From: a virus
Virus record (IMG/VR): IMGVR_UViG_3300037231_000119
Coordinates: 98,447-162,446 of that record
DNA: 64,000 nucleotides
Strand: one strand, 5' to 3'
Below are positions 63,694 through 64,000 of this stretch, piece after piece. Under the pieces are notes generated by a model that was not told the DNA's origin, searched no databases, and saw nothing but the letters and a program-made list of their open reading frames with translations. A program made the position numbers and the translations under genes. Position 1 is the stretch's first letter, and each line of letters begins with the position of its first letter.

Positions 63694-64000
63694 GTTTTAG
63701 GTGATACGGATGGCAGAAAAGGATAGACTTCGACGTGATGTCCGAACGCCGTTGTTTTAGGTGATACGGATGGCAGAAAAGTGCTGTGTATAATCCCAGT
63801 TCAACAGTTACACGTTTTAGGTGATACGGATGGCAGAAAAGGGGATGGTTCAGACCAGTTTCAGCCTGGTTTAGTTTTAGGTGATACGGATGGCAGAAAA
63901 GGCTAACGATATTTGTTCTTTTAAGAACTGTCTGTTTTAGGTGATACGGATGGCAGAAAAGAAATAATGAACTCTTTCTAAGACTTCTAGCTTGTTTTAG
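63694..64000 (+). CRISPR. CRISPR array with repeat GTTTTAGGTGATACGGATGGCAGAAAAG (28 nt) and 32-nt spacers; continues past the window end
   Basis: Identical repeats at 63694, 63754, 63814, 63874 and 63934, plus a partial copy at 63994; five unique 32-nt spacers. Orientation is inferred from the AT-rich leader and the anti-repeat. Confidence 0.97.

Follow-up and report, generated by a model that had tools for sequence, protein, structure and literature searches.

Type V CRISPR-Cas systems have arisen from TnpB many times, and adaptation genes have joined them on at least 12 separate occasions, according to the accessible portion of a survey that also lists forty unnamed V-U branches (PMC10691335). 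The guide RNAs of two compact nucleases, Cas12n (PMC12216341) and Cas12p (bioRxiv 10.1101/2025.01.20.633832), contain a pseudoknot between the 3' end of the repeat and the 5' region of the tracrRNA, as described in the available parts of both reports. In type V-K, the tracrRNA pairs with GTTGAAAG at the 3' end of the repeat (bioRxiv 10.1101/2025.03.07.641588). The repeats of Cas12r arrays share elements with a class 1 repeat and mimic host I-E repeats, and adaptation by the host I-E system has been proposed for them (bioRxiv 10.64898/2026.04.20.719267).

We analyzed a stretch of 64,000 nucleotides (the window), which forms the last 64 kb of a virus record of 162,446 bp and ends inside a CRISPR array. 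This array probably belongs to a phage-encoded, tracrRNA-dependent type V system that joins a compact TnpB-derived nuclease to an integrase made of an I-Fv-like Cas1 and a Cas2e-like protein.

Organization of the locus in the phage and its relatives

The genes for the effector, Cas1 and an 89-residue protein lie on the same strand with overlapping stop and start codons, directly upstream of the tracrRNA and the array (Table 1). Judged from its sequence, the effector is a predicted TnpB/Cas12f-like RNA-guided nuclease that reaches none of the V-F, V-N or V-U2 cut-offs. It matches Pfam Cas12f1-like_TNB with 66 bits, and the sole NCBIfam model that it passes is the generic guided_TnpB (114.6 bits; cut-off 100), the scores for Cas12f2 (67.6 bits; cut-off 450) and c2c8 (72.8 bits; cut-off 350) staying below the subtype thresholds. 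The RuvC triad (Asp-285, Glu-387, Asp-482) and the CxxC..CxxC zinc ribbon do not vary among 10 family members. The best sequence match in the PDB is RdCas12n (9J09; E 2.9e-19) and covers residues 305-489 only, which represent the RuvC half of the protein. A predicted model of moderate confidence (pLDDT 67, pTM 0.42) finds Cas12f and TnpB as its best folds with about equal scores (TM ~0.3-0.37), and it is thus not possible to assign a subtype from the structure. The closest relative of the effector, with 51% identity, is encoded by locus L009 on a 156-kb phage-like contig; a scan of IMG/VR with the effector returned no relative. The arrangement is that of a type V system: beside the array lies a single effector whose RuvC domain is of the TnpB type and retains its catalytic triad.

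Table 1. Features of the CRISPR locus, in window coordinates
Feature	Position	Strand	Remarks
Effector, 511 aa, TnpB/Cas12f-like	60800..62335	+	alternative start at 60836 gives 499 aa
Cas1, 277 aa	62332..63165	+	I-Fv-like lineage, I-F side of the I-E/I-F Cas1 tree
Cas2e-like protein, 89 aa	63156..63425	+	profile-profile match to Cas2 of the class 1 relatives
Predicted tracrRNA promoter	63422..63450	+	perfect -35 TTGACA overlapping the cas2 stop codon; weak -10
Predicted tracrRNA, ~205 nt	63457..63664	+	putative 5' end; covariation in nine loci
tracrRNA hairpin 1	63461-63476	+	loop 63466-63471 (6 nt)
tracrRNA anti-repeat	63626-63633	+	short; 8-bp duplex with the repeat
tracrRNA terminator	63638-63664	+	called by terminator scan; T-run on the + strand
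Leader, short, A/T-rich	63665..63693	+	between terminator and first repeat
CRISPR array	63694..64000	+	repeats 1-5, five spacers, start of repeat 6; continues at genome 1-628 (L008)

Within the window, the array has a period of exactly 60 nt, with 28-nt repeats starting at positions 63694, 63754, 63814, 63874 and 63934. Five complete repeats and five spacers of 32 nt are followed by a sixth repeat, which is cut at 63994 so that its first 7 nt remain. The record is labeled linear, yet its ends overlap by 127 nt within the array (window positions 63874-64000 equal genome positions 1-127, L008). The genome thus closes to a circle of 162,319 bp, or is circularly permuted, and the assembly break fell in the CRISPR repeats. 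The closed array comprises 14 repeats of 28 nt and 13 spacers, each of exactly 32 nt. Repeat 11 carries the only repeat variant (A22G), and the last repeat is complete, with G as its final base. The strict 60-nt period and the 28+32 geometry reported in a preliminary description of this DNA were confirmed, and the real I-F arrays that we compared share the 28/60 values.

The 13 spacers begin, in order, with G, T, G, G, A, A, A, T, A, A, A, T and A. A fixed G at the spacer start, which had been considered previously, is therefore not seen after the 28-mer, where G, T and A all occur. No spacer starts with C among the 43 in the arrays of the window, L009, L014, L026 and L182, an outcome with a chance probability of ~3e-5; C is found at the second base in only 3 of the 43, and the overall C content of the spacers is 21%. 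C is likewise absent from the base that follows the 27-nt repeat in the 27 units examined of the class 1 relative L020. This lack of an initial C might reflect an acquisition motif. Protospacer searches against GenBank phages, with both complete family arrays as queries, and against plasmids, with the array of the phage (genome 1-660), yielded chance-level matches only. Two 22-nt spacer seeds had no match in IMG/VR, and none of the 50 family spacers has a protospacer in the phage genome or in any locus compared. In another peat metagenome, a strain with a leader and tracrRNA ~97% identical to ours carries a different spacer after the first repeat (from 63722), which fits array turnover but does not by itself reveal its polarity.

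Eleven further metagenomic loci show the same layout, several of them on phage-like contigs: L009, L012, L014, L016, L017, L178, L180/L181, L182, L183, one locus for which no DNA is at hand, and the decayed L026. They share a TnpB-like gene coding for 412-539 residues, cas1, a small cas2, a structured spacer region and 28-nt repeats lacking a hairpin. Every related Cas1 gene with readable surroundings is preceded by a TnpB-like gene and followed by a small Cas2-like ORF, which applies to L009-L012, L014, L016, L017, L178, L180-L183 and the locus without DNA; where the sequence continues, a structured region of ~150-230 nt, a terminator, a short leader and 28-nt repeats with 31-33-nt spacers follow. 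Our phage and at least nine relatives keep full-length cas1 and cas2 genes beside the nuclease, with conserved residues in the catalytic regions. Two members deviate from this layout. L026 (positions 26-1200) contains the 3' end of the effector gene, then a Cas1 cut to 98 residues and no cas2, and it retains a normal tracrRNA and five repeats. In L180 (3381-3584), nuclease, cas1, cas2 and tracrRNA are present together with one solo repeat and no spacers; this repeat still matches the loop and the anti-repeat of its own tracrRNA. A lytic transglycosylase (SLT) gene adjoins the locus in the window (60007-60483), in L014 (4222-4719), in L178 (1813-2262) and in L016 (521-979), and the locus seems to have a constant genomic position among related large phages.

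The repeat and the predicted tracrRNA

The folding energy of the repeat is -2.1 kcal/mol (z -0.9), which is no better than that of shuffled sequences, and no stable hairpin is formed. A real I-F repeat folds with -8.6 kcal/mol, and the repeats of the class 1 relatives with -7.7 to -9.0 kcal/mol. The Cas6f-type signature, a stable 5-bp stem-loop with an 8-nt 3' handle, is absent from the repeat. The preliminary description had noted the lack of a strong internal hairpin and the 3' end GAAAAG, and both observations were reproduced here. The repeats of the window and of L009 differ only at positions 14-18, and a complementary change is found in the 8 nt just before the upstream terminator.

For the nine loci with both tracrRNA and repeat sequence, we aligned the region that begins with the first hairpin and ends with the first repeat, and tested three helices: hairpin 1, the loop of hairpin 1 with repeat positions 22-26 and 28 (a pseudoknot), and the anti-repeat with repeat positions 11-20. 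Paired cells amount to 93.6%, a value attained by none of 500 shuffles (71.4%), in a set of only nine related sequences, for which the structure had been drawn partly by eye before testing. Shifting the partner by 1-3 columns lowers the fraction to 25-55%, and 16 of the 21 pairs change on both sides. The anti-repeat duplex holds for repeat positions 12-20, the pair at position 11 failing in seven of the nine loci. The terminal G28 of the repeat pairs with an invariant C of the tracrRNA loop in all nine. When no structure was given, RNAalifold recovered hairpin 1, a closing helix (CCUG..CAGG) and the anti-repeat:repeat helix. In the peat-metagenome strain, a compensatory pair of changes (C63639G and G63659C) is located in the terminator stem. 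An anti-repeat complementary to the repeat, as expected of a tracrRNA-dependent type V system, was thus found by comparative sequence analysis, and the covariation across nine loci supports the earlier proposal that a repeat without a hairpin pairs with a tracrRNA. The covarying duplexes suggest that the last 17 nt of the repeat act as a guide scaffold. Conservation across the family is highest at repeat positions 1-12, which have no partner in the tracrRNA. In L183 (3358-3834), the repeat boundaries are shifted by one base and an extra constant G is found at the 3' end, together with an extra matching C in the tracrRNA loop.

Four cells in the duplexes are G-U pairs, which would become A-C if read on the other strand. 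Because of these pairs, the promoter-like site and the T-run terminator, we place the RNAs on the + strand. A -35/-10 pair with 16-17-nt spacing that ends 10-11 nt before hairpin 1 is found in seven of the nine loci, while a generic promoter scan of the window did not call the tracrRNA promoter. A search of Rfam over positions 55000-64000, CRISPR repeat families included, gave no match at E values up to 1. The leader motif AAAGTTAATAT...TAG is common to the window, L009, L012 and L182, and (T/C)AG precedes the repeat in all nine loci; alignment of the leader with those of the class 1 relatives was uninformative in this A/T-rich sequence. We found no convincing promoter for the array in the ~30-nt leader, and array transcription would need read-through of the tracrRNA terminator or an overlooked promoter.

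We also considered a reading in which each repeat provides a stop codon, a Shine-Dalgarno sequence and an ATG for a micro-ORF. The L014 repeat lacks an ATG, and the ATG of L009 does not share the reading frame of the TAG that follows. As the register holds in our phage but not in these two relatives, it probably arose by chance from the scaffold sequence.

The adaptation module and alternative readings of the array

Cas1 matches TIGR00287 with 137 bits and scores below the cut-offs of both the I-F model (104 bits; cut-off 150) and the I-E model (136 bits; cut-off 216). Among PDB entries it matches the Cas1 chains 8k21 and 4w8k best, and about twenty relatives share 38-72% identity with it. We calculated a careful tree from 41 Cas1 sequences, with which a quick tree of 105 rows agrees. 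One group is I-E-like, with mostly 61-nt periods. A second contains canonical I-F proteins (Acinetobacter, Moraxella, Legionella, Vibrionaceae and others) with 60-nt periods and CTGCC..GGCAG-type repeats. The third is a clade (support 97/94) that includes class 1 I-Fv-like loci and joins canonical I-F at 100/99; within it, ten TnpB-type Cas1 proteins form one group (94/80) beside five class 1 loci. The 89-residue ORF has no direct match in Pfam or NCBIfam and none in the PDB, by single sequence or by profile. A profile of nine orthologues nevertheless aligns over its full length with a profile of class 1 Cas2 proteins (hhalign 96.3%, E 1.9e-9), and four of the seven Cas2 proteins of the class 1 relatives match Cas2e (TIGR01873). 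The adaptation module is of class 1 type, with Cas1 in a clade with I-Fv-like loci next to canonical I-F and a Cas2e-like ORF of 89 residues.

The class 1 sister loci contain Cas7fv, further unnamed genes and a Cas2e-like gene. Cas7fv is recognized in L020 with 293 bits, and L015 has a Pfam Cas7fv-like gene and a Cas3-HD gene. The more distant L072, with a Cas1 from the I-E-like group, encodes Cas3, Cas7fv-like, Cas6e-like and Cas2e proteins. Arrays of the class 1 relatives have periods of 60-61 nt. In three of the five sister loci, the array directly follows cas1-cas2 in the same orientation and consists of 27-nt hairpin repeats and 33-nt spacers, which again gives a 60-nt unit; the L015 array is inverted and has a 61-nt period, and in L098 we saw no array. 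We searched the 162-kb phage genome for class 1 components: Cas6f, Cas6e and the Cas3 core have no match anywhere in it, and a search for Cas7fv returned nothing, as did its control. The ORFs neighboring the array contain no Cas6f, Cas7f/Cas7fv, Cas5, Cas8 or Cas2-3/Cas3 domains according to Pfam and NCBIfam. The Cas1 of our phage is nested among class 1 loci with the same 60-nt period, from which we infer that the I-F geometry of the array comes from the integrase.

The preliminary description had proposed a more specific history, in which the repeat is a reverse-complemented I-F repeat, its GGCAG is the surviving arm of a Cas6f hairpin, and the other arm (positions 9-13) has been overwritten by the segment that pairs with the tracrRNA. 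GGCAG is indeed present at positions 19-23, but only in the window and in L009, the other seven family repeats being different there. In the window, its bases lie inside the covarying duplexes, with G19 paired to the anti-repeat and A22-G23 in the pseudoknot; the pairing segments span positions 12-20 and 22-28 and include GGCAG, rather than replacing an arm at 9-13. Against ten canonical I-F repeats, the family scores slightly better as the reverse complement (z 6.8) than forward (z 5.1), and the L009 repeat shares 17 of 28 in-register positions with the reverse complement of two I-F repeats, with a run over positions 14-23. For class 1 repeats with the nearest Cas1, however, the forward orientation is clearly better (z 6.8 versus 2.9). 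The window repeat has 10-14 of 28 in-register identities with real I-F repeats as the reverse complement and 10-15 of 28 forward, and the reverse-complement line-up is thus not special. The z-scores exceed shuffles in both orientations and come from comparisons that are not independent; as class 1 repeats, I-F repeats among them, are also partly self-complementary, similarity on both strands is expected, and the orientation is not fixed by sequence alone. Independent evidence favors the forward orientation, namely the synteny with class 1 loci, the leader on the cas2 side, the decayed distal repeats and the logic of the PAM side. A degenerate repeat is located at the far end of the array from cas2 in the TnpB-type locus L014 and in the class 1 locus L020, which puts the leader on the cas2 side in both. 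The I-E and I-F integrases set the PAM-side end of the spacer against the repeat 3' end, and a type V effector needs the PAM-side spacer end beside the repeat 3' end, so that the two suit each other only in the forward orientation. We consider descent from a reverse-complemented I-F repeat unlikely.

A 27-nt repeat followed by a 33-nt spacer, whose first G would be copied from the PAM as in Escherichia coli I-E, had been put forward as another way of dividing the unit. The closest class 1 arrays (L018, L020, L021 and L072) do combine conserved 27-nt repeats with 33-nt spacers, and the shifted unit boundary with its extra constant G in L183 points in the same direction. This division appears very improbable to us, because G28 is found in all 14 repeats of our phage, is retained by the last repeat of each of the two complete arrays and by the single repeat of L180, and pairs with the invariant loop C throughout the alignment. 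In addition, the 27-nt class 1 repeats end in AAG too, and the extra constant base of the TnpB-type repeat is located at the 5' end, where it is present even in the first, leader-adjoining repeat. Equally improbable is the idea that a host class 1 system fills or processes the array, as proposed for the Cas12r arrays. There, a phage type V array with class 1 geometry has been linked to host I-E adaptation (bioRxiv 10.64898/2026.04.20.719267), and L026 and L180 illustrate that family members can lose cas1-cas2 or the array. Against such hijacking speak the full-length cas1 and cas2 genes that the phage and at least nine relatives retain in the nuclease operon, and a repeat that offers no hairpin to a Cas6 enzyme. 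We see hardly any chance that the array is transcribed from the minus strand and that the structured region upstream is not a tracrRNA. No array promoter was found on the + strand, which would suit this reading, but the G-U pairs of the duplexes exist only on the + strand, where the promoter-like site and the T-run terminator are also located; only in RNA read from the + strand does the repeat end that forms the pseudoknot lie next to the spacer; and no leader-like or conserved sequence is found after the last repeat.

Proposed origin and comparison with known systems

Our preferred reading remains a type V system that uses a class 1-derived integrase. The integrase would set the 60-nt unit of the array, as in its class 1 relatives, and would require the first 11-12 nt of the repeat, its length and its GAAAG-type end. 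The last 17 nt would form the guide scaffold: positions 12-20 would base-pair with the anti-repeat, which immediately precedes the terminator of the tracrRNA, and positions 22-28, adjoining the spacer on its 5' side, would form a pseudoknot with the hairpin 1 loop. The pre-crRNA would be read from the + strand and probably processed to a mature crRNA of ~17 nt of repeat followed by the spacer. The nuclease may then cut DNA beside a 5' PAM.

The origin is most simply read as one event, in which a TnpB-type nuclease took over the cas1-cas2-leader-array cassette of a class 1 system and the integrase kept the 60-nt unit. The broad notion that a Cas6 hairpin was remodeled for tracrRNA pairing is supported by the hairpin repeats of the class 1 sister loci, whereas the GGCAG relic and the reverse-complement orientation that came with it find no support. 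More tentatively, the locus could represent a class 2 system emerging from class 1, in which an I-Fv-like cassette was taken once by a phage TnpB, the Cas6 hairpin gave way to the 3' scaffold of a split omega-RNA, and a chimeric repeat kept the length and the ends needed by the integrase. If this were true, an I-F-clade integrase would not need the repeat palindrome, and modules of different classes could be combined, both reading a 5' PAM beside the repeat 3' end. The family provides a natural test of repeat recognition by I-F-type Cas1-Cas2, as the palindrome is lost while the unit length and both ends are kept. That type V systems can be assembled on class 1 adaptation cassettes has been suggested in a general way, from at least 12 separate associations with Cas1 (PMC10691335), but the class 1 sister loci are seldom available for comparison; here, such a case is clear and has the support of the Cas1 tree. 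The family also adds to the few known phage-borne CRISPR systems with a complete adaptation module. Nucleases of 412-539 residues that bring their own genes for spacer acquisition, and for which covariation defines the design of the guide RNA, also have potential as tools.

We compared the locus with described CRISPR-Cas systems. With type I-F and I-Fv (I-F2), it shares the 60-nt unit (28+32 or 27+33), a Cas1 on the I-F side in a clade with Cas7fv-carrying loci, a stand-alone Cas2e-like protein, and the order cas1, cas2, leader and array on one strand. It differs from them in having no repeat hairpin, a single TnpB-like effector, and a tracrRNA gene between cas2 and the leader. With type V-K, the resemblance concerns the repeat end. 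The type V-like 3' end had been noted early, and a GAAAG-type ending is in fact common to V-K, the repeat of L026 ending in the same eight letters as the V-K repeat. The same ending is also found in the class 1 locus L072, and similar ones in L032 and L033, and it is therefore not diagnostic of type V. In V-K, the Cas12k effector is inactive and linked to a transposon.

A compact nuclease with RuvC domain and zinc ribbon is shared with V-F (Cas12f), V-N (Cas12n; 9J09) and V-P (the Cas12p 'hacker'; 9JFS). The available parts of their descriptions indicate further common features, namely a first tracrRNA stem and pseudoknot that engage the last bases of the repeat, a second repeat:anti-repeat duplex, and an array downstream. 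The engagement of the last repeat bases in a pseudoknot is, as far as these sources go, the arrangement known from TnpB omega-RNA and from Cas12f, Cas12n and Cas12p guides. The repeats given there are ~36-37 nt long, compared with 28 nt here; the Cas12p system, which is also phage-borne, has 37-nt repeats. In the accessible text on Cas12n, the tracrRNA is located at the end of the nuclease gene, whereas here it comes after cas2. Our locus has its own I-F-clade Cas1-Cas2, while Cas12f is described in the literature as being without Cas1, Cas2 and Cas4, and the portions of the published descriptions of Cas12n and Cas12p at our disposal mention no adaptation genes. The Cas12r system of Thermus Lalka phages shares a phage-borne TnpB-like nuclease and a class 1 array geometry (29 + 32-33) (bioRxiv 10.64898/2026.04.20.719267). 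It differs in having no cas1 or cas2, no tracrRNA and a 29-nt I-E-like repeat, according to its description. Within the literature accessible to us, we found no published account of a locus that unites 28-nt repeats and a tracrRNA downstream of cas2 with a TnpB-type effector and an adaptation module of I-F-clade Cas1 and Cas2e. The system is apparently an undescribed variant of type V, and it may sit unnamed among the V-U branches listed in the part of the survey available.
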